Shown here: positions 53,537 to 63,492 of the stretch, one piece after another
Position numbering within the stretch: the first letter of the stretch is position 1
Layout: the number at the start of each line of letters is the position of its first letter
Assembly (NCBI GenBank): GCA_021821045.1
Contig: JAKACW010000007.1
Span: forward strand, 25,983 to 89,982
Length of the DNA stretch: 64,000 bases
DNA from: Pseudomonadota bacterium
GTDB lineage: Bacteria; Pseudomonadota; Gammaproteobacteria; JAADHS01
Direction of reading: 5' to 3'
The notes under the pieces: generated by a model
Databases searched by the model: none
What the model was told of the DNA's origin: nothing
What the model saw: only the letters and a program-made list of their open reading frames with translations
Position numbers and translations under genes: made by a program

Positions 53537-54355
53537 ATGCCCGCACAACGCTACGCCCTGCTTTCGGCCCAAGACATCAAGTCGCTGCTTGAGCAAACCC
53601 CCGCTCCCCATGTTATCAATCTGTGCACGGACGCCGGTCGCCGCTGCAATCTCCCGGGCGCCGTTTATCTGGACTACAAGCAACTGGTGCGGCCCGCGCC
53701 GCCGGTGCTGGGGCTCCTGCCGGACAGCGCGACGCTGAGTCGCGTGCTGTCGGCCATCGGCTTGACCCCCGATGCCGACGTCATCGCCTACGACGACGAA
53801 GGGGGCGCCCGCGCCTGCCGCTTGTTGTGGACTTTGGATACCTGCGGCCACCGCGGCCGCCTCATGCTGCTGGACGGCGGCACGCAGGCGTGGCAGCAGG
53901 CGGGGTTTGGCTATGAACCGACGGCGGCGACGCCGGTTCCGACCGTGTACCCGATCGAAACCACCGCGACCGCCCACGCGGACAAAGCCTATATCCTCGC
54001 CCACCTGTCCGACGGCACGACTCAAGTGCTCGATACTCGCTCCCAGAACGAATACGACGGCAGCCTGCCCCGCGCCAACCGCAACGGACACATCCCGGGA
54101 GCGATCAACGTGGAGTGGACCAAAGCCATGCAGAGCGCGCCGGGAAAGCCGCTCAAACCGCTGGCCGACATCGCGAAGCTGTACGCCGATGCGGGCCTCG
54201 ATCGAAACAAGGAAGTCATCGTCCATTGCCACTCCCACCACCGTTCCGCCCATTCCTACTTCGTACTGAAGTTATTGGGCTATCCCAAGGTGCGGGCATA
54301 CAGCGGTTCATGGTCGGAATGGGGCAACGCACCCGACACCCCCGTCGAGAAATAA
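53537..54355 (+). CDS. Two-domain rhodanese (thiosulfate/3-mercaptopyruvate sulfurtransferase-like)
   Basis: Two rhodanese modules. Active-site loop CHSHHRS in the C-terminal domain. Start taken at MPAQRYALLSAQD. Confidence 0.8.
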   Translation: MPAQRYALLSAQDIKSLLEQTPAPHVINLCTDAGRRCNLPGAVYLDYKQLVRPAPPVLGLLPDSATLSRVLSAIGLTPDADVIAYDDEGGARACRLLWTLDTCGHRGRLMLLDGGTQAWQQAGFGYEPTAATPVPTVYPIETTATAHADKAYILAHLSDGTTQVLDTRSQNEYDGSLPRANRNGHIPGAINVEWTKAMQSAPGKPLKPLADIAKLYADAGLDRNKEVIVHCHSHHRSAHSYFVLKLLGYPKVRAYSGSWSEWGNAPDTPVEK

Positions 54356-54917
54356 TCCAACACACGCCAACCGAACAACAAGTGGACACCTATCGCACGT
54401 GACAACTATCGAACACACCCCGCTGATGCACAGGTGTCATAGCATTGTTTAATAAGGATATATACAAGAAAATGATCTACAAGTTACACTATGGGTTACA
54501 GTTTTTCGAAGGTTACCTGCTTCGCAATTATTTGTTATAAATTACTGTTTTATATAGTTTAAATATGAGTACCTGTTGCCCATTATCCCTTGTCATATCT
54601 GTACTTGACTTATATTGCCGATACCCCTTAATTTACCCAGGGTAACGCAGTTCATTGTCAAGCGAGTCGCTATCTCGATAAAGATTTTTGACCTCCCTGT
54701 CAAAAATCGACTCGCCAACGCGACGATTAATTCTTTTTGCCCCGACCGGCCTGCGTCCGCCACGACTACGTATGACATTGCTCATAAATTCGCTCGTCAC
54801 ACTCCGTCATGGCTACACCACAATGCCTCTACGGCAACTACAGCCGCTGCTGCATCTTCTCCGTAACTCGCTCTCGCTCATAACTGCGAATATGCAGACG
54901 GCGTTGCCTATTGGGGA

Positions 54918-55121
54918 CTAATCGCCCTCGCTTCCGCTCTCCATGGCGATCAGCGGGAGCTGCTGCGCGGCGGCAGCTGTGTTTTCCTGTACGGCCTTGA
55001 GACCGTGATCCGCCGCCAGAGCGGCCTTCCAGGCGTGCTGCAGGGTTTCCGCGAAAGCATTCGTCATCGGCGCAAACAGGAAACATGCCAACAAATAACA
55101 GTAACCGCTATTCTTCATCAC
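54918..55121 (-). pseudogene. Truncated outer-membrane factor (TolC/OprM family) gene; only the first ~65 codons remain
   Basis: Signal peptide plus LQHAWKAALAADHGLKAVQENTAAAAQQ typical of an OMF N-terminus, then a stop. An AT-rich non-coding tract follows at 54360-54917. It sits where an RND operon's third gene is expected. Confidence 0.45.
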
Positions 55122-55130
55122 CCTGTTACT

Positions 55131-58100: not shown

Positions 58101-58217
58101 ATAGGGGTAACGGTCAACGCCGATACGATCGAAGCTGACCAGTCCGAACAGAACCAGCACGGCACTGAGCATCCACGCCAGCACATGTCGGTTGATGGAA
58201 ATCTCTGGCAGTGTCAT
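55131..58217 (-). CDS. RND efflux permease (AcrB/HAE1-like)
   Basis: 1028 aa, 12 TM helices and large periplasmic loops. Start MTLPEISINRHVLAWMLSAVLVLFG. Confidence 0.9.
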   Translation of the reverse strand: MTLPEISINRHVLAWMLSAVLVLFGLVSFDRIGVDRYPYIDFPMISVTTTLPGANPEIIDASITNLIETAVNSVPGIEHVQSDSSPGASVVRITFNLTKDVDVAFNEVQAKVNQALRDLPDDADPPVVAKVEFGAIPIMWITLQGDRTLQQLNQYTRTVIKKRLENIDGVGEVRLGGKRERTIRVNLDVDRMNAYGVTTQDLIRAFQGEHFQMPGGFLVGDTSEYLIKLDLEFHQPADLEHLIVAYREGAPIRISDIAQVVDGLEDNRRLARFNDETAVGLGIVKVTGANAVAIIEAVEQRLNEEIIPQLPPGMKIAIASNDADLINELVFALEEHLVLGTLLTALVVWLFLKSLRATAIIALAIPVSLLGAVAVMYFFGYTFDTMTLLGLLLLIGIVVDDAIVVLENIYRHREEGGLDAKTAALHGTNQVVFAVIAASLTLVSIFAPVIFMQGVIGSFFRSFAVVVTFGVLVSLFVSVTLTPMLCSRYLNVAQKHGQLYRFLEEGFRALERAYRRMLHGALRFRWLVVLLTIVAVYPSGFFMGELGKGFLPEEDEGRFLISFKTPLGSTLAYTDGRLAEVEKRLRQHEGIASWFSTIGTGETGQSSRGEIFIRLQPREQRNLHMYRIIDQLRDELAEIPGIKAFPSPIPPLGGQRGEPLQFVLLGPDVASVAGWSHKLQQRLNSMPELGSVDLDLQLELPQLTLQIDRTRAQDIGLSAQEIALAVNVLAGGLDVAKYNDLPGDGERYDVRLKAIEGSFKTPDELHRIYLRGRDGKLVRLDTVASLKEDIGPAVVTRFDLRYSGNFFATPTISEGEAAELVKQVAMELLPSGYEIKMIGRAEEFEKTAKYMLFAFVSAIVLVYMVLASQFDSFIQPIVIMVAQPLAIVGGVAGLWLADMSLNIFSMMGLVLLMGLVAKNSILLIDLTNQLRAEGKEIREALLTACPLRLRPVLMTSLTVIIVMLPAALGFGAGADTNGPLAVAVIGGMVSSTLLTLVVVPAVYSLVENGLKHLHGWLHRRAVSATPSE

Positions 58218-59296
58218 TCGTCTTTGACCTCAATCAGCGCGCCATCGGTCAGAAAACCCGCACCATCCGCGACGACTCGCTCACCAGCGGCAAGACCCTC
58301 AAGAATCTCAACCTGCCCGGCCTGCCGCAAGCCGGTGCTCACTACCCGCTGCACCGCCCTGCCGTCCTTGATAACGTAAATCACGGTGCTTGCGGGCCGA
58401 CGCACGACGCTGACCTCGGATACCATGACCGCGTTCTCGTGCCGGGCTACCCTCACCGCACCAGTCACACTCGCACCCGGTTCCCAGGGCCCCGGATTCT
58501 CGACATTCACAATAATCTGGACCGAACGGCTGCCAACGGTGATAGAGGGGCGTACCTCACTGATTGTGGTTTCGACGCTGACATCCGGGGCCGATGGACT
58601 GCTCAACCTGACTGGCAAGCCGGTGTGTAATTGTGACAACAGGGTTTCGGGATAGGGTAAGCGCGCCTTGAGCCAGTCAAGGTTGCCGATACGCATCAAC
58701 GGCGAAGCAACTTTTACATAGTCTCCTACAGAAACCTGAGTATCATCGACACGCCCTTTAATCGGACTCAGGACCCTGGTTTTCCTGATGTCGCGCTCAG
58801 CCTGTTGCAGACGCACCCTGGCTCCGGTAAGTTCGGCCTGCAAGGCACCGAACTGTGCTTCCACATCATCCAGCGCGGACTGATTTGCCGACTTTTTCTG
58901 AACCAGTGCACGATAGCGCTGCACACCCAGACGTTGTGCACGGATCAGGGCCTGCAGACGCTCGATGTCAGCCTCGGCCATGTCCTTCGCGAGTTGAAAA
59001 GCTTCCGGGTCGATCTCGGCCAGCACCTGCCCTTGCTCAATCCGATCTCCCACATCGACATTGACCGCCGTCAGTCGACCGGCCACCTCAGCGGCAATGA
59101 GTGGCGCAACCTTGGCTTCCAACTGGCCGACGGAGGGTTCCCATACCTCAACATCGCGAGACTCGGCTACCGTCACAGTGACCGGCACCATGCGGACAAT
59201 CGGTTCCTGTTTGTCCGCTGGCTGTTCCGTTTTTCCTGACGTTGAAGTCATCAACAGGGTGCAGAGTAACAGTCCGGTGAGTGTTGCTTTATTCAT
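58214..59296 (-). CDS. RND efflux periplasmic adaptor (membrane fusion protein)
   Basis: Lipoprotein/TM start, coiled-coil hairpin, beta-barrel domains. 4-nt overlap with the permease gene. Confidence 0.85.
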   Translation of the reverse strand: MNKATLTGLLLCTLLMTSTSGKTEQPADKQEPIVRMVPVTVTVAESRDVEVWEPSVGQLEAKVAPLIAAEVAGRLTAVNVDVGDRIEQGQVLAEIDPEAFQLAKDMAEADIERLQALIRAQRLGVQRYRALVQKKSANQSALDDVEAQFGALQAELTGARVRLQQAERDIRKTRVLSPIKGRVDDTQVSVGDYVKVASPLMRIGNLDWLKARLPYPETLLSQLHTGLPVRLSSPSAPDVSVETTISEVRPSITVGSRSVQIIVNVENPGPWEPGASVTGAVRVARHENAVMVSEVSVVRRPASTVIYVIKDGRAVQRVVSTGLRQAGQVEILEGLAAGERVVADGAGFLTDGALIEVKDE

Positions 59297-59322
59297 TGCG
59301 AATCCTCGGCGGTTCAATCTCA

Positions 59323-59982
59323 TTATTGGTTTTTCCGTCCCTTCACATCGGATAACGCACCCCGCAACAGAAGGTCAAACACATCGCTGCTGTAACGGGC
59401 CGGCGTTCTGGCAAAGCCACCCTCGGCCAGGTGTGCTGTTACTGATCGGTTTTCAAAGAAAAACACGTTCGCGCCCAACATTAAAAACGCCAGCAATGCC
59501 GGATCGAATTCCGCGCGCAAGAGTCCCTGTGCCTGCCCGTCACTCACCATGCTCACTAGGCGGGTGAAGTAATCGGCGAATACCTGACTTGCCAGCGCCT
59601 GTTCCCGGCTTTCCTCACTTTCCGCTATTTCGCGCAGAATGAGCCGCACAGAATCCGGGCTCTTCAACATTGCCGCCAGATGTGAAGCAAAAAAATTCCA
59701 GAGATTATCGACCGCAGCGGATGGATCGCCGGCCTGTGTATCGGCCAGACTGCCAACCGTCTCTTCGCAAGCTGCTTTCAACACCGCAAGGTAAAGCGCT
59801 TCCTTGGATCCGAAGTGATGAAACACATTGGCCTTGCTCACCCGCGCCTGGCGGGCGATTTCATTCATGGAAACCGCATCAAACCCCTTATCCGCAAACA
59901 GCTGTTTGGCCACACCAAGAATGGCGAGTGCGCCCTCACTCAGGGTGTGAACAGGCGTCGATTTCTGACTGGCTTGTGCCAT
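59323..59982 (-). CDS. TetR family transcriptional regulator (likely efflux repressor)
   Basis: TetR HTH GFDAVSMNEIARQARVSKANVFHHFGSKEAL. First gene of the efflux operon. Confidence 0.85.
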   Translation of the reverse strand: MAQASQKSTPVHTLSEGALAILGVAKQLFADKGFDAVSMNEIARQARVSKANVFHHFGSKEALYLAVLKAACEETVGSLADTQAGDPSAAVDNLWNFFASHLAAMLKSPDSVRLILREIAESEESREQALASQVFADYFTRLVSMVSDGQAQGLLRAEFDPALLAFLMLGANVFFFENRSVTAHLAEGGFARTPARYSSDVFDLLLRGALSDVKGRKNQ

Positions 59983-60068
59983 TCGTTTTTCTCCTGCCCG
60001 CGCGATTTATAGGCTAATCAGACTGACCGACCGGTCAGTGAATTGATGCTAGCAACCGCTTCAACGAC

Positions 60069-60257
60069 ATGCAAGGTCAAAATCAACACTGGGATATGCT
60101 CGAAGAAACGGCTGCGGAATACCCCTCCGAGGGAAAACCAGCCCCCATGGAGTATGAAGTCGGTCGGAATGGGTTGGCGCTAAAAAGTGCTGCACTCGCA
60201 GCCCCAGCCATTATCTCCAGCAGCGCGGTTGGTGGCGAACCCCTGCCGCATGGCTAA
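60069..60257 (+). CDS. Doubtful small ORF (62 aa, Ala-rich) ending ...SSAVGGEPLPHG; overlaps the start region of the E2-E1-JAB gene
   Basis: ORF track only. Internal GG near the C-terminus is noted but there is no beta-grasp-like pattern. Confidence 0.15.
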   Translation: MQGQNQHWDMLEETAAEYPSEGKPAPMEYEVGRNGLALKSAALAAPAIISSSAVGGEPLPHG

Positions 60258-62556
60258 TCCGGGTAATTCTGGAAATACGCCTCCCTGGGCAATCCAACAT
60301 GCGCTGAACCAGATTGGCAAACACCCGCATGTAGATGCCATCGGGCCTGTCAAAATTAGCCCCGATGGCATCTGCTTGGCTTCTGCATCTATCAGGACGA
60401 ACCTGCCCACCGTATGGCGAGCTGCCGGCAAGAGCCCGACCGGGGTCCGGCTTGTTGAGCCTGTCTTCTTCCAGTTCCCGGCAGACTATCCGGCCAACCC
60501 GCCACGGATATATCTCCGTACCGATTTCAACCGCTCCCTCCCCCATATCCAGCCGGGCAACCCAGAGGACCCAGTTGAACCATGTTACTTTGAAGGTGAC
60601 CCGCGTGAGTTGCTTCACAGACAGGATATTGGCGCCATCGTCAATCAACTGGTCTACTGGCTGGAACGAGCGGCAAAAGACGAACTGATCGATCAGGAGC
60701 AGGGCTGGGAACCTGTCCGCCGTGACAGCATTGATGACTATGCTGTTGTGGAACACAGCTCATTGCGACAACTTGTTGGGAAACGCCCCGCGTTCAGATT
60801 CCTCCCTGTCGATTACGTCAAGTACATTCCGACTGTTGGGTCACAAAGGTCCGAGAAAGGGTATTCCTTCTATGGTTCAGTGCAATCAGATCCTGTGCCG
60901 GTTAACTGGGATTACCTGGGAGCATTACGTGTTCCATCAACGTCCTCGAAGGTCTTCCAATACGGGGATTCCATCGCCATATTTGCAACGCCAGGCAGAT
61001 TGCCGTCAGGCACGCCGTTTATATACGACCATTATGTGCCAGAAACGGTTACCAACGTATCAACACTGATACAACAGGCCTATGAATATGGATGCGGGAA
61101 AGAACTTGAAGATACCCTCTCCCACTTGCATCAGATAACTGAAAACGTTCAGGGTGTTACTCAACGCATTCCCATTCTTATCATCCTCTGCGCGAGACGG
61201 CCGACACATTTAATCGGTTCCAGCAGCGATCTGGAACTCATCCCCTACCTGCTCGAGACGCTGGCGCCGATGTTTACTGACGACTATGCTACTTTTCCTG
61301 TTCATCCTGTTGCATTGCGACATGCAATCTCGCCACAGCTCCTGCGGGATGTGTCGGGCATTAACATACCTGATGACCGTATGCTCGTGCACCTTGGTTG
61401 CGGCAGCCTGGGGTTGAAGATAGCCCTTCATATGGCTCGCGCCGGCCTGGCCCCCTCGATAGTTGCAGATAACCGAACCTTGTCGCCGCATAATACCGCC
61501 CGTCATGCACTTATACCCGTCAAAGAACGTTTCGATATCTCGTGGATGAACCGGAAAGCTGGTGCATTATCTGGCGCTATCAGTGGTCTGGGACAATCCG
61601 CCGATGCCGTAAATATCGATGCAGTTTCACTCGGTGCTGACAAGAAGCGGTTGTGGAAAGTCATACCCAAAAAGACGTGGGCCGCGGTTAATTCCACCGC
61701 ATCTCTCGCGGTGCGTGACACACTGGCCGTACTCCCCACGGAAACCATGCCCGCACGCGTACTCGAAACGTCATTATTCGCCGAGGGCTCAGTGAGCCTG
61801 ATGACGATCGAAGGGCCTGACAGGAATCCGAACACGTCGGATCTAATCCTTGAGGCCTACGAGATAATTCGGTCAGATGAAACACTCCGCGAACGTTTTT
61901 TCGGTAACAATGGGGATCTGGAGCGCCAGGAAATTGGGCAGGGTTGTTCATCCACAACAATGATAATGCCCGATGCCGATATTTCTCTGTTCTCCGCATC
62001 CATGGCTCGCAAGCTATTGGAAATGCGGAAGCGGCAATTACCCGAATCCGGCCAAGTGCTTATCGGCAAGCTGGATGATGATGGGCTCGGGATGACCTGG
62101 ACAACCGATGATATAGCCCCGTATCACAGCGTACAGGCGGAAAACGATTCGACCGGGCAGATCCGGATTTCACCACGCGCTCACCAGCTGATTATTGAGG
62201 AATGCGGGCGATATCAGGCAGTTGAAACGGGTGGCATCATAATGGGATCTGCCTCAGAAATCAGAAAGACGATAGTCATCACCAATGTCCTGCCCGCTCC
62301 TGCTGATTCACAACGCTCTGCAGCAACGTTCGTACTCGGTACGCAGGGTGTTAAGCAGATGGTGGAAGATTACGCCAAACCGACCGGCTACGTCTTACAC
62401 TGTGTTGGGACATGGCACATCCACCTTCAGGACACAGGAGGATCACCCCGCGATTATCAGACGGCTGAGATGATTGCTGCGAAGATTGCGATACCGTCAG
62501 TTCTGCTGATAAAGACACCTTCTGGTTATCGAGCAATCCTTGCGAGAGGTGATTGA
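60187..62556 (+). CDS. E2-like + E1-like (ThiF/MoeB fold) + JAB/JAMM peptidase triple-fusion protein (ubiquitin-like conjugation machinery)
   Basis: UBC-like FFQFPADYPANPPRIYL...PEDPVEPCYFEG. E1 Rossmann LVHLGCGSLGLKIALHMARAG plus ADNRTLSPHNTARH. JAMM motif E...HIHLQDTGGSPRD. Visibly lower GC than the flanks. True start may be MANPGNS at 60253. Confidence 0.65.
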   Translation: MLHSQPQPLSPAARLVANPCRMANPGNSGNTPPWAIQHALNQIGKHPHVDAIGPVKISPDGICLASASIRTNLPTVWRAAGKSPTGVRLVEPVFFQFPADYPANPPRIYLRTDFNRSLPHIQPGNPEDPVEPCYFEGDPRELLHRQDIGAIVNQLVYWLERAAKDELIDQEQGWEPVRRDSIDDYAVVEHSSLRQLVGKRPAFRFLPVDYVKYIPTVGSQRSEKGYSFYGSVQSDPVPVNWDYLGALRVPSTSSKVFQYGDSIAIFATPGRLPSGTPFIYDHYVPETVTNVSTLIQQAYEYGCGKELEDTLSHLHQITENVQGVTQRIPILIILCARRPTHLIGSSSDLELIPYLLETLAPMFTDDYATFPVHPVALRHAISPQLLRDVSGINIPDDRMLVHLGCGSLGLKIALHMARAGLAPSIVADNRTLSPHNTARHALIPVKERFDISWMNRKAGALSGAISGLGQSADAVNIDAVSLGADKKRLWKVIPKKTWAAVNSTASLAVRDTLAVLPTETMPARVLETSLFAEGSVSLMTIEGPDRNPNTSDLILEAYEIIRSDETLRERFFGNNGDLERQEIGQGCSSTTMIMPDADISLFSASMARKLLEMRKRQLPESGQVLIGKLDDDGLGMTWTTDDIAPYHSVQAENDSTGQIRISPRAHQLIIEECGRYQAVETGGIIMGSASEIRKTIVITNVLPAPADSQRSAATFVLGTQGVKQMVEDYAKPTGYVLHCVGTWHIHLQDTGGSPRDYQTAEMIAAKIAIPSVLLIKTPSGYRAILARGD

Positions 62557-62602
62557 CGCAAATTGGTTTCCATAATATGACCCTGCTCCAGGCCGTATCC
62601 AA

Positions 62603-62848
62603 TCAGTAGTACTGTCGGATGTACCCAAATGCCTTGTCGAACAAGTCCTGATCCATGATCTTGTACTTTACATAAATCGCCTTGCGCAGTGCTTTCTGGA
62701 CTTCGCGCTCGCCGGCCTTGGTGTCCTTATATCCCGTAAAGCGAATTACTATGGCGCCGCGCTGCTGCGATAAAAGCCGGTGATCACTTGTTTGACAAAG
62801 AGTCAGATTGCTTTTCACGCATTGTCTAGAATCACCGGCTCGATACAT
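62603..62848 (-). CDS. Hypothetical small protein (81 aa); possible degraded RelE/ParE-like toxin remnant
   Basis: DHRLLSQQRGAIVIRFTGYKD faintly resembles the RelE/ParE C-terminal pattern. Very uncertain. Confidence 0.2.
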   Translation of the reverse strand: MYRAGDSRQCVKSNLTLCQTSDHRLLSQQRGAIVIRFTGYKDTKAGEREVQKALRKAIYVKYKIMDQDLFDKAFGYIRQYY

Positions 62849-63492
62849 TTGGATTCATCGTCTTTCGGGCTGTTCACCCGCTTACTGACTGGGTACAAGG
62901 TCATCTGCTTGGCCGGATAGGGACGCAGCAAACTGAGCAGATGTTCAGTGTCCGCGGTCTCGTGACCCAACCAGGCGTCATAATTGTCTGGATCCAGAAT
63001 CACCGGCATCCGGTCATGGATGGGCCGCAGCAGTTCGTTGGCGTCGGTTACGACGATGGTACAGGATTCGATGGTCTTGCCCTGCTCGCCTTCCCAGTAC
63101 TCCCACAGGCCGGCAAAGGCGAAGAGATCCGTATCCTTCAACCGCACCGCATAGGGCTGGCGACCGCGGGCTGTCCGTTCCCACTCGAAAAAGCCGCTGG
63201 CAGGCACCAGGCACCGCCGCTGGCGGAAGGCCGTGCGGTAGGCCGGCTTGGTGGCCACGGTTTCAGCGCGTGCATTGATCATACTGAACTTGGTCTTCTC
63301 TTCCTTGGCCCAGTGCGGGATCAGGCCCCAGTGCAACATGACCAGTTCCCTCCCCGCCTCACCCTCCCGTATTGCGGCGATATCCTGCGAGGGCGCGATG
63401 TTGAAACGCGCGGTCAGGAGTGGCATCTGCTTCAGGGCGAACTGCTCCAGCAGACGCTTGCGGGGTGTATCAAGGTAGAAGCGGCCGCACAT
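62815..63492 (-). CDS. yedK: SOS response-associated peptidase (SRAP/YedK, abasic-site processing protein)
   Basis: Starts MCGRF with catalytic Cys2. ...HWGLIPHWAKEE..., FFEWE motifs. 225 aa. Confidence 0.85.
   Translation of the reverse strand: MCGRFYLDTPRKRLLEQFALKQMPLLTARFNIAPSQDIAAIREGEAGRELVMLHWGLIPHWAKEEKTKFSMINARAETVATKPAYRTAFRQRRCLVPASGFFEWERTARGRQPYAVRLKDTDLFAFAGLWEYWEGEQGKTIESCTIVVTDANELLRPIHDRMPVILDPDNYDAWLGHETADTEHLLSLLRPYPAKQMTLYPVSKRVNSPKDDESKCIEPVILDNA

Follow-up and report, generated by a model that had tools for sequence, protein, structure and literature searches.

An E2-E1-JAB gene in the window, that is, the whole 64,000-nucleotide stretch analysed here, encodes Cap2_3, one of the two components of the anti-phage system 6A-MBL; the system was in all probability acquired horizontally and is now incomplete. 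The partner gene, encoding a metallo-beta-lactamase (MBL)-fold effector, survives only as a 3' stump, an arrangement that is fixed in the lineage and in which the stump is decaying. Most probably, the local cap2_3 is a broken relic and the locus no longer works in defence.

The E2-E1-JAB fusion is an already known family, described in 2006 as operon type “6a” and found “almost always” beside a specialised MBL, with which it forms a two-gene operon (Iyer, Burroughs and Aravind; PMC1779556). Since it is also covered by a curated NCBIfam equivalog model, the novelty that an earlier note on this DNA implied for a compact module of three activities does not stand. Reviews state that experiments in Pseudomonas aeruginosa have confirmed the anti-phage activity of 6A-MBL. 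This activity is reportedly the finding of van den Berg et al. 2024.

In an intact system, following an outline summarised in PMC11601596 and conjugation chemistry borrowed by analogy from Cap2 and Cap3 of type II CBASS, the E1 domain would adenylate the C-terminal glycine of the MBL-fold effector. Thioester transfer would then carry the activated effector to the E1 cysteine (here Cys566) and on to the E2 cysteine (Cys112), and its ligation to a target would prime or activate defence. The JAB domain would remove conjugates, or expose the glycine by trimming a short extension at the C-terminus.

Identification of the cap2_3 gene

The gene and its domains are laid out as follows.

60187..62556, + strand: maximal cap2_3 open reading frame (ORF), 789 aa from a GTG start (ORF list)
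60250..62556, + strand: cap2_3 gene, E2-E1-JAB triple module, 768 aa plus stop (exact match in a public assembly; NF058523)
60286..60744, + strand: N-terminal E2 domain, UBC-like, Prok-E2_A (Pfam PF14457, E=3.9e-25)
61357..62049, + strand: E1 domain, ThiF/MoeB/Cap2-like adenylation (PADLOC E1-E2, 4.1e-15)
62146..62553, + strand: C-terminal JAB/JAMM metallopeptidase domain, Cap3-like (PADLOC JAB, 1e-16)

The 789-aa frame is present exactly as the earlier note gave it, and the ATG at 60250 is likely to be the true start, rather than the GTG at 60187. The 768-aa product is recorded verbatim in a public assembly, an exact-product look-up with the 789-aa, GTG-started product gave no match, and in intact relatives the stop of the preceding MBL gene and the counterpart of this ATG overlap (ATGGCTAA). 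The protein matches the NCBIfam model NF058523 (“anti-phage 6A-MBL system cap2_3 protein”) at 558.1 bits, well above the equivalog cutoff of 320, and the full model is covered, residues 82-775 of the 789-aa ORF aligning with model positions 3-665 of 665.

As in other Cap2_3 proteins, E2 (Prok-E2_A), E1 and JAB domains follow one another in a single polypeptide (Pfam, PADLOC, Foldseek), with the E2 cysteine, the E1 glycine loop, arginine, aspartate and cysteine, and the JAB E...HxH...S..D motif all present. The Pfam match to Prok-E2_A covers residues 68-186; the UBC-like motif PANPPRIYL...VEPCYFEG contains the candidate catalytic Cys112 (768-aa numbering; 60583-60585), and His99 is encoded at 60544-60546. 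The E1 region contains GCGSLG (residues 383-388, at 61396-61413), D407, N415, R418, K436 and the motif ADNRTLSPHNTARH, with the PADLOC E1-E2 match spanning residues 397-764; the candidate catalytic Cys566 (61945-61947) lies within a low-confidence mobile loop (pLDDT <50 at residues 555-571). In the JAB domain (PADLOC match, residues 654-765) the motif reads VETGG...WHIHLQDTGGSPRD, and the key residues are E659 (62224-62226), H723-x-H725 (62416-62424), S732 and D735. Across 29 homologues, H99, C112, G383, G385, G388, D407, N415, R418, K436, C566, E659, H723, H725, S732 and D735 are all invariant, and every one of them is kept here.

An AlphaFold2 model of the protein (mean pLDDT 81) has as its top Foldseek match full-length Cap2 (7TO3_A, E=4.9e-20, 645 columns), and its JAB domain is matched by Cap3 (9ILD_A, E=1.5e-6, TM 0.63, rmsd 3.4 Å); a profile search against PDB sequences matched Cap2 7TSQ at 1.5e-7 over residues 374-494. 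Sequence identity of the structural matches is 13-16% to Cap2 chains and 19% to Cap3. All three motifs that the earlier note had picked out (UBC-like with a candidate cysteine, ThiF/MoeB-type E1, C-terminal JAMM) are thus borne out by domain matches, and the structural model upholds both the proposed folds and the kinship with CBASS enzymes.

The same note had taken the low GC of this patch as a sign of horizontal acquisition and had named a tetR/efflux operon and yedK as its flanks, and both observations hold. The cassette has a GC of 0.535 where the window averages 0.586, which puts it at the 1.6th percentile among segments of the same size, and GC3 is 0.547 against 0.71-0.76 in the neighbours; the flanking genes match TetR and SRAP/YedK in Pfam, with an RND pump and a membrane-fusion protein among the precomputed Pfam matches. 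Immediately to the right lies a further low-GC feature.

62603..62848, - strand: 81-aa ORF, convergent with cap2_3 (GC 0.484)

The C-terminal 37 aa of this ORF show 43% identity (tblastn, E=2e-5) to loci L085 and L086, intact cassettes with a small ORF directly 3' of cap2_3 (10354..10533 in L085), and the 81-aa ORF is probably a remnant of the right flank of the donor island. Neither this ORF nor the 62-aa ORF described below gave a Pfam, NCBIfam, PADLOC or PHROG match.

A 3' stump in place of the MBL gene

Upstream of cap2_3, three features define the truncation.

59983..60107, strand not applicable: junction region, intergenic DNA upstream of tetR, adjoining the MBL stump (sequence inspection, alignment)
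60069..60257, + strand: 62-aa ORF enclosing the MBL stump, directly 5' of cap2_3
60108..60257, + strand: remaining 3' end (stump) of the MBL-fold effector gene of 6A-MBL, last ~46 codons plus stop (TAAEYPSEGKPAPMEYEVGRNGLALKSAALAAPAIISSSAVGGEPLPHG, then stop)

The stump ends in ...GGEPLPHG and a stop, the MBL proteins of loci L002 and L003 (389 aa) end in exactly the same tail, and the stop of the stump overlaps the start of cap2_3 by 8 nt, as in intact operons; the catalytic MBL domain is wholly absent. The MBL HMM aligns over no more than positions 341-389 of its 389 (at 60108-60254), blastn homology to the L002, L003 and L084 cassettes is limited to 60117-62563, and in the alignment with intact relatives homology ends left of ~60110, pointing to a deletion or recombination breakpoint at ~60108-60117. 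A full-length, same-strand NF058524 gene, which completes the two-gene 6A-MBL system, is missing directly 5' of cap2_3, and no second MBL match was found in the 64-kb window or in the 8.5 kb beyond it in L001 (~72 kb covered). With the MBL gene reduced to its last codons, Cap2_3 is therefore left here without its cognate substrate and effector. The earlier note correctly saw no intact effector gene adjacent to the fusion, but missed the stump at 60108-60257: the effector is absent because the MBL gene was lost, and not by virtue of a new compact design.

Within the junction region, a perfect 8+2+8 palindrome at 60022-60039 (ACTGACCG-AC-CGGTCAGT) looks, from its sequence, like a TetR operator; a sigma-70 promoter scan upstream of cap2_3 found no + strand promoter. 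A look-up with the exact TetR protein, meant to reveal either an unoccupied site or a complete cassette at this chromosomal position, brought up the same truncated arrangement and no other, so that deletion in situ and acquisition of an already truncated fragment are not distinguishable as routes to this structure.

The MBL partner in related genomes

The cap2_3 gene was compared across 80 loci with a Cap2_3 homologue, all from other genomes (GTDB species representatives). A full-length MBL gene lies directly 5' on the same strand in 74 of them, and the remaining six have either a contig end (L019, L047, L058, L060) or a fragmented MBL gene (L025, L032). Wherever upstream sequence is available, Cap2_3 thus has an MBL next to it, which argues for a strict cis partnership. 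The partner conserved in the 80 loci is the MBL; no small gene recurs in such a role. Accordingly, the separate ubiquitin-like protein (Ubl) that the earlier note proposed to search for is not a component of the Cap2_3 family, whose partner is an MBL-fold enzyme, and no such Ubl was found among the Gly-ending ORFs of 50-200 aa within ~14 kb and the L001 extension, a list in which only the MBL stump ORF is meaningful.

The full-length partners in related loci are ~385 aa long and belong to NF058524 (‘6A-MBL_enzyme’, 432-454 bits). Their C-terminal residue is glycine in 66 of 76 cases; 64 of the 76 end in ‘HG’, and the other partners carry HG followed by 1-4 extra residues. This C-terminal ...HG tail of the MBL itself is the presumed conjugated end, and the survey (MBL gene 5' in 74/80, HG end in 64/76) provides comparative support for conjugation of the MBL C-terminal glycine. 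All examined relatives at 78-80% identity keep the MBL (383 aa) together with cap2_3, in cassettes that adjoin a BrxR/WYL regulator inside defence islands. The earlier note had allowed that orthologues might reveal a known multi-gene biosynthetic pathway: they do place the gene in a known multi-gene system, one that is anti-phage and not biosynthetic.

Fixation, decay and alternative readings

The truncated junction is common to loci L001, L082, L083 and L089-L091, and the truncated layout recurs in other samples, on at least 24 contigs that carry P0001. Over the block 59983-62602 the window and L001 are 100% identical, so dN/dS from that pair is uninformative; the informative comparison is with a sister haplotype (haplotype B; L082, L083), which carries a 1-nt deletion at 60211 and 7 substitutions within 133 nt of the stump. 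Frameshift included, 8 of 133 nt differ between the two haplotypes (P<=0.002 against the synonymous rate), and the stump is decaying.

Whether cap2_3 is decaying with it bears on an alternative that we regard as unlikely, namely that the orphan enzyme is still functional and selected, with its substrate encoded elsewhere (candidates would be a further MBL, an enzyme resembling CD-NTases, or a host protein whose C-terminal tail is suitable) or with a role as a JAB deconjugase or decoy. The 2.3-kb ORF remains open and keeps all its catalytic residues; neither haplotype shows a stop or an indel in it, while three indel events fall within the 267 nt of neighbouring non-coding and stump DNA; and its identity to the outgroup P0019 (63.6%, versus 61-63% for intact-operon relatives) reveals no long-term acceleration. 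The absence of indels and the unaccelerated rate would fit continued selection on an orphan enzyme, as would the fixation of the arrangement on those contigs from different samples. Against this, cap2_3 has a pN/pS of 0.58 when the two haplotypes are compared, a value that cannot be told from neutral (0.14 in the neighbouring RND pump), and the MBL-less lineage has 3-4 private substitutions at positions at least 96% conserved, compared with a median of 1 in other homologues. These include the non-catalytic changes G126D, W636G and S389L, the last directly after GxGxxG and beside the nucleotide-binding loop. Moreover, the 80 other loci show the enzyme always with its adjacent MBL where upstream sequence exists, and the ~72 kb covered here contain no candidate substrate. 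We therefore retain the reading of a broken relic, in which the cap2_3 ORF is still intact probably because the MBL loss was recent. It is more doubtful still that Cap2_3 was kept and repurposed after the MBL loss, acting on a substrate in trans, on a tag derived from the MBL tail, or as a JAB deconjugase that modulates the defences of the island; if true, this would be a natural case in which a bacterial E1-E2-DUB enzyme has become independent of its cognate substrate.

Two further readings concern the stump itself. One would see a new minimal system, in which the peptide of the 62-aa stump ORF is adenylated and conjugated by Cap2_3 as a miniature ubiquitin-like tag. The stump does keep the MBL tail, the part held by the E1 active site in complexes of Cap2 with the CD-NTase C-terminus (going by the titles of 7TSQ and 7TSX), and ends in the family-typical HG; an ATG-started ORF runs through it, with a stop that overlaps the cap2_3 start as it does in intact operons. 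However, the 1-nt deletion at 60211 destroys this frame in haplotype B and, together with the 7 substitutions, means that the peptide is not conserved, by which the reading is largely refuted; the ATG at 60069 is preceded by no Shine-Dalgarno-like sequence, no promoter was found, and the 62-aa ORF has no family match, making such a tag highly improbable. There is an even slighter chance that the MBL is missing through an artefact of assembly or binning, for example a chimera of a tetR contig with a cassette contig, the real operon being intact. The related sequences do derive from metagenome assemblies, but the identical junction recurs in assemblies made independently, by different pipelines and from different samples, and in two haplotypes. 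Because six independent assemblies carry it (Logan SRR14932512, SRR28748390 and SRR13304626; ENA ERZ27309217 and ERZ27237524; NCBI GCA_027343985.1), we reject an artefact.

Read as a relic, the locus is a clean, dated example of defence-system decay, with the effector lost first and the enzyme still pristine-looking. It is also a warning for annotation, as a cap2_3 match alone would be miscounted as a 6A-MBL system.

Comparison with known systems

With ThiF/MoeB adenylyltransferases, Cap2_3 shares the Rossmann-type adenylation fold and GxGxxG. In contrast to these enzymes it has E2 and JAB domains and no ThiS/MoaD neighbour, and does not belong to a biosynthetic operon; its scores lie far below the model cutoffs (TIGR02355, 15 bits versus 376.55; TIGR02356, 12.5 versus 275) and below threshold for Pfam ThiF (13.5 versus 28.1). 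A sulfur-carrier role of the ThiF/MoeB kind is ruled out by these scores and by the context.

The Bil (type 6e) and Bub systems also employ E1, E2 and JAB-type functions, in phage defence or in related settings, and the Cap2_3 model has structural similarity to BubCD (9EA4, E ~1e-7). Those systems, however, have separate beta-grasp Ubl, E1 and E2 proteins, and Bub is without catalytic cysteines, whereas the Cap2_3 family conserves both cysteines and has no Ubl; of a separate Ubl gene with a C-terminal glycine, the only relevant candidate within ~10 kb is the MBL stump ORF.

The best structural matches are Cap2 and Cap3 of type II CBASS (for example Enterobacter cloacae Cap2-CdnD02; 7TO3, 7TSQ, 9ILD). 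The two systems would follow the same logic, in which an enzyme of the system itself is adenylated at its C-terminus by E1 and passed on by the E2 cysteine, with JAB undoing the conjugation. In contrast to CBASS, Cap2 and Cap3 form one polypeptide here, identity is only 13-19%, and the 6A-MBL partner is an MBL-fold hydrolase instead of a CD-NTase, with no cyclic-nucleotide effector; in place of CD-NTase and cyclic-nucleotide effector genes, the neighbours are TetR/RND and SRAP.

The 6A-MBL system itself is distinguished from the locus by two features: the local MBL gene is cut to ~46 codons, leaving the two-gene system incomplete, and the divergent regulator is the TetR of the RND pump, as opposed to BrxR/WYL in the closest intact relatives. 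In all other respects compared, the locus resembles it, with a full-length cap2_3 member above cutoff, the E2-E1-JAB order, conserved catalytic residues, the MBL 3' end retained upstream, the 8-nt stop/start overlap and a defence-island neighbourhood.

Family membership and architecture of Cap2_3

The E2-E1-JAB fusion gene of the window, cap2_3, occupies the ORF that the earlier note had described (60187..62556, +; GTG start, 789 aa), which contains all of the motifs quoted there, although the more likely start is ATG 60250, giving 768 aa. The 768-aa product has an exact match in a public assembly, and in intact relatives the stop codon of the preceding gene and the equivalent of this ATG share bases (ATGGCTAA). 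Domain searches bear out the three-part architecture (Prok-E2_A in Pfam, E=3.9e-25; JAB, 1e-16, and E1-E2, 4.1e-15, in PADLOC), as does an AlphaFold2 model based on an alignment of 29 homologues (mean pLDDT 81.2), for which the top match among solved structures is full-length type II CBASS Cap2 (7TO3_A, E=4.9e-20, 645 aligned columns); the C-terminal domain resembles Cap3 (9ILD_A, E=1.5e-6, TM 0.63). All residues invariant in the 29 homologues are kept, among them both cysteines, the adenylation motif and the metal-binding residues of the JAB domain.

Later papers credit van den Berg et al. 2024 for phage defence by 6A-MBL, a two-gene system in which Cap2_3 is the conjugating enzyme. The window protein is a genuine member of an established family that has a name and a curated model, the NCBIfam equivalog NF058523 ('anti-phage 6A-MBL system cap2_3 protein'): its score is 558 bits (curated cutoff 320), and the match spans the whole model. 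This family, conserved over its full length, gave 187 matches at E<=1e-5; among the 120 matches listed, most are ~770 aa long and 39-80% identical, except for a 99%-identical allele (P0001), and the nearest named relatives are Ca. Thiodiazotropha and Thiolapillus. The name 6A-MBL traces to Iyer, Burroughs and Aravind 2006 (PMC1779556), who described the triple fusion as operon type 6a, nearly always beside a specialised metallo-beta-lactamase, and later papers count the system among known phage defences of Pseudomonas aeruginosa and, in one case, among known jumbo-phage defences.

A truncated MBL partner

Open reading frames neighbouring 80 homologue-encoding loci from different genomes were clustered, and an MBL (metallo-beta-lactamase-fold) profile was built from the clusters. 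In 74 of the 80 loci, cap2_3 is immediately preceded, on its own strand, by a full-length gene of ~385 aa, usually with a gap or overlap of <20 nt; four of the other six end at a contig edge (L019, L047, L058, L060). Fragmented copies at two loci, L025 (4721-5986) and L032 (4924-5986), consist of several frame fragments beside an intact cap2_3, and may represent more effector decay, or frameshift or sequencing errors in long-read MAGs. The partner in relatives is NF058524 ('6A-MBL system MBL-fold protein'; 432-454 bits, cutoff 220). All relatives examined at 78-80% identity (including L084 from Ca. Thiodiazotropha and L085-L088) keep a BrxR/WYL regulator (-), a 383-aa MBL gene (+) and cap2_3 (+), within defence islands whose other neighbours differ.

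Features of the window locus and of its neighbourhood are as follows.

60108-60254 (+): MBL stump, matching only positions 341-389 of 389 in the MBL profile
60187-62556 (+): cap2_3
62815-63492 (-): SRAP/YedK gene, intact, 225 aa; also intact in L089
54918-55121 (-): 67-aa ORF with a signal-peptide-like N-terminus, MMKNSGYCYLLACFLFAPMTNAFA...
L001 12195-19036, right of the window end: AbiEi-like gene, Gabija, Wadjet (JetD and a 1528-aa gene)
L082 13196-18409 and L083 11029-16242: TIR_2 protein and BREX genes (BrxL, PglZ)

In the two closest genome relatives, L002 (79% identity) and L003 (72%), the MBL proteins are 389 aa long and end in ...GEYPSEGKPAPMEYEVGRNGLALKSAALAAPAIISSSAVGGEPLPHG before the stop, a C-terminus identical to the tail of a 62-aa ORF in the window (60069..60257). 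Homology to the L002, L003 and L084 cassettes (blastn) starts at 60117 in all three and ends at 62563, 62562 and 62545, respectively, running 6-7 nt beyond the cap2_3 stop in L002 and L003; left of ~60110 lies the tetR upstream region. No second MBL homologue was found with the MBL profile in the 64-kb window or the 8.5 kb beyond. The defining full-length partner of 6A-MBL is thus missing, and the complete system is therefore absent. That no effector gene is adjacent, as the earlier note had it, is literally true; the cause is truncation of the effector gene (stump at 60108-60254) rather than a new compact design.

Distribution and origin of the truncation

An assembly artefact was rejected, as the identical junction recurs in six samples that were assembled independently (L001, L082, L083 and L089, L090, L091, the last group including NCBI GCA_027343985.1), and P0001 is found in the truncated context on at least 24 contigs. 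The truncation is fixed in this lineage. Block 59983-62620 exists in only two haplotypes, A (the window and four others) and B (L082 and L083). The MBL body may have been lost by deletion at this site, or the fragment may already have been truncated when it was acquired; no strain was found in which the corresponding chromosomal position holds an intact cassette or is empty. A low-GC 81-aa ORF follows cap2_3 on its 3' side, and its C-terminal 37 aa are similar to a small ORF in the equivalent place in L085/L086, a likeness suggesting that part of the donor's right flank arrived with the cassette. Over the tetR upstream region, stump and cap2_3 (59983-62602), L001, L089, L090 and L091 match the window at 100% identity, and in the RND genes just left of this block L001 differs from the window by 0.6-1%; the sharing or sweep of the block appears to be more recent than that of the DNA on either side.

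Decay versus constraint

Between haplotypes, the stump shows 8 differences in 133 nt, including a frame-breaking 1-nt deletion (P<=0.002 against the cap2_3 synonymous rate), and non-coding plus stump DNA, 267 nt in all, contains three indel events; cap2_3 shows 15 nucleotide differences (5 synonymous and 9 nonsynonymous codon changes) and no indel. Across 60108-60249, the haplotypes differ at 6% of positions, versus 0.9% synonymous divergence in the adjoining cap2_3, an excess that may reflect recombination over a short tract, a hotspot of mutation, or selection acting on the translation-initiation region of cap2_3. The pN/pS of cap2_3 (0.58) is indistinguishable from neutral (p=0.35); that of the neighbouring RND pump is 0.14. 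Three positions at least 96% conserved among 113 homologues are changed in the MBL-less lineage, by G126D, S389L (immediately following GxGxxG) and W636G, with G516S in the window only; private changes at conserved positions number 4 in the window (median 1, 90th percentile 3).

These data point to decay or relaxed constraint, whereas comparison with the outgroup P0019 speaks against decay: the lineage is 63.6% identical to it, versus 61-63% for intact-operon relatives, with no long-term rate acceleration. Overall, the pattern fits a recent effector loss, after which constraint on cap2_3 may have relaxed without visible degradation so far; selection on the orphan gene may also continue. A mini-tag role for the 62-aa stump ORF is appealing but has little support, as haplotype B disrupts its reading frame and neither a ribosome-binding site nor a promoter signal was found for it.

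Composition and neighbourhood

The low GC reported earlier holds (cassette 0.535, window mean 0.586; 1.6th percentile of equal-sized windows), with a GC3 of 0.547 versus 0.71-0.76 in neighbours, and the flanks hold, as described, a TetR/RND efflux operon on one side and the SRAP/YedK gene on the other. A perfect palindrome in the tetR-proximal intergenic region (60022-60039, ACTGACCG-AC-CGGTCAGT), which carries a 4-nt CGGA insertion at its centre in haplotype B, resembles a TetR operator; should transcription of cap2_3 now begin in the divergent tetR region, TetR could conceivably control it. Within 58214-59982 (-), haplotype differences are 3 synonymous to 7 nonsynonymous in the membrane-fusion protein and 1 to 6 in TetR, versus 12 to 5 in the RND pump gene, hinting that parts of the efflux operon are also under relaxed constraint. 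Just downstream of the pump gene lies a low-GC stretch (0.49; 54250-55130); its 67-aa ORF has no Pfam match, and our guess is that it might be the start of a truncated outer-membrane factor gene. Homology between L001 and the window ends at 54413.

To the right, SRAP/YedK is called as only 110 aa in L001, L082 and L083 (an indel, with ~6% nucleotide divergence), and the DNA beyond it diverges by 12-13%, versus <1% on the left flank, suggesting a recombination boundary beside the cassette. Beyond yedK and flhDC, a few kb right of the cassette, sister contigs carry differing defence cargo, so that the cap2_3 relic borders a variable defence hotspot; the L001 Gabija comprises GajB and a GajA split into 244-aa and 318-aa ORFs.

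Comparison with known systems

By analogy with Cap2/Cap3, Cap2_3 would conjugate MBL via the C-terminal Gly of MBL itself, from E1 to E2, and the JAB peptidase would reverse conjugation or process a precursor. A survey of partner C-termini supports this mechanism for 6A-MBL: Gly is terminal in 66 of 76 full-length proteins ('HG' in 64), and the few exceptions carry 1-4 residues after HG, tails that the JAB peptidase could trim. With the MBL body lost, the window locus is left without substrate and presumed effector. The observation made in the earlier note is confirmed and its interpretation partly supported: the E2-E1-JAB fusion family was already known, and a new compact design is not borne out, the partner being full-length in most related loci and truncated here. 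The description that suits this locus best is a degraded 6A-MBL system bordering a variable defence island.
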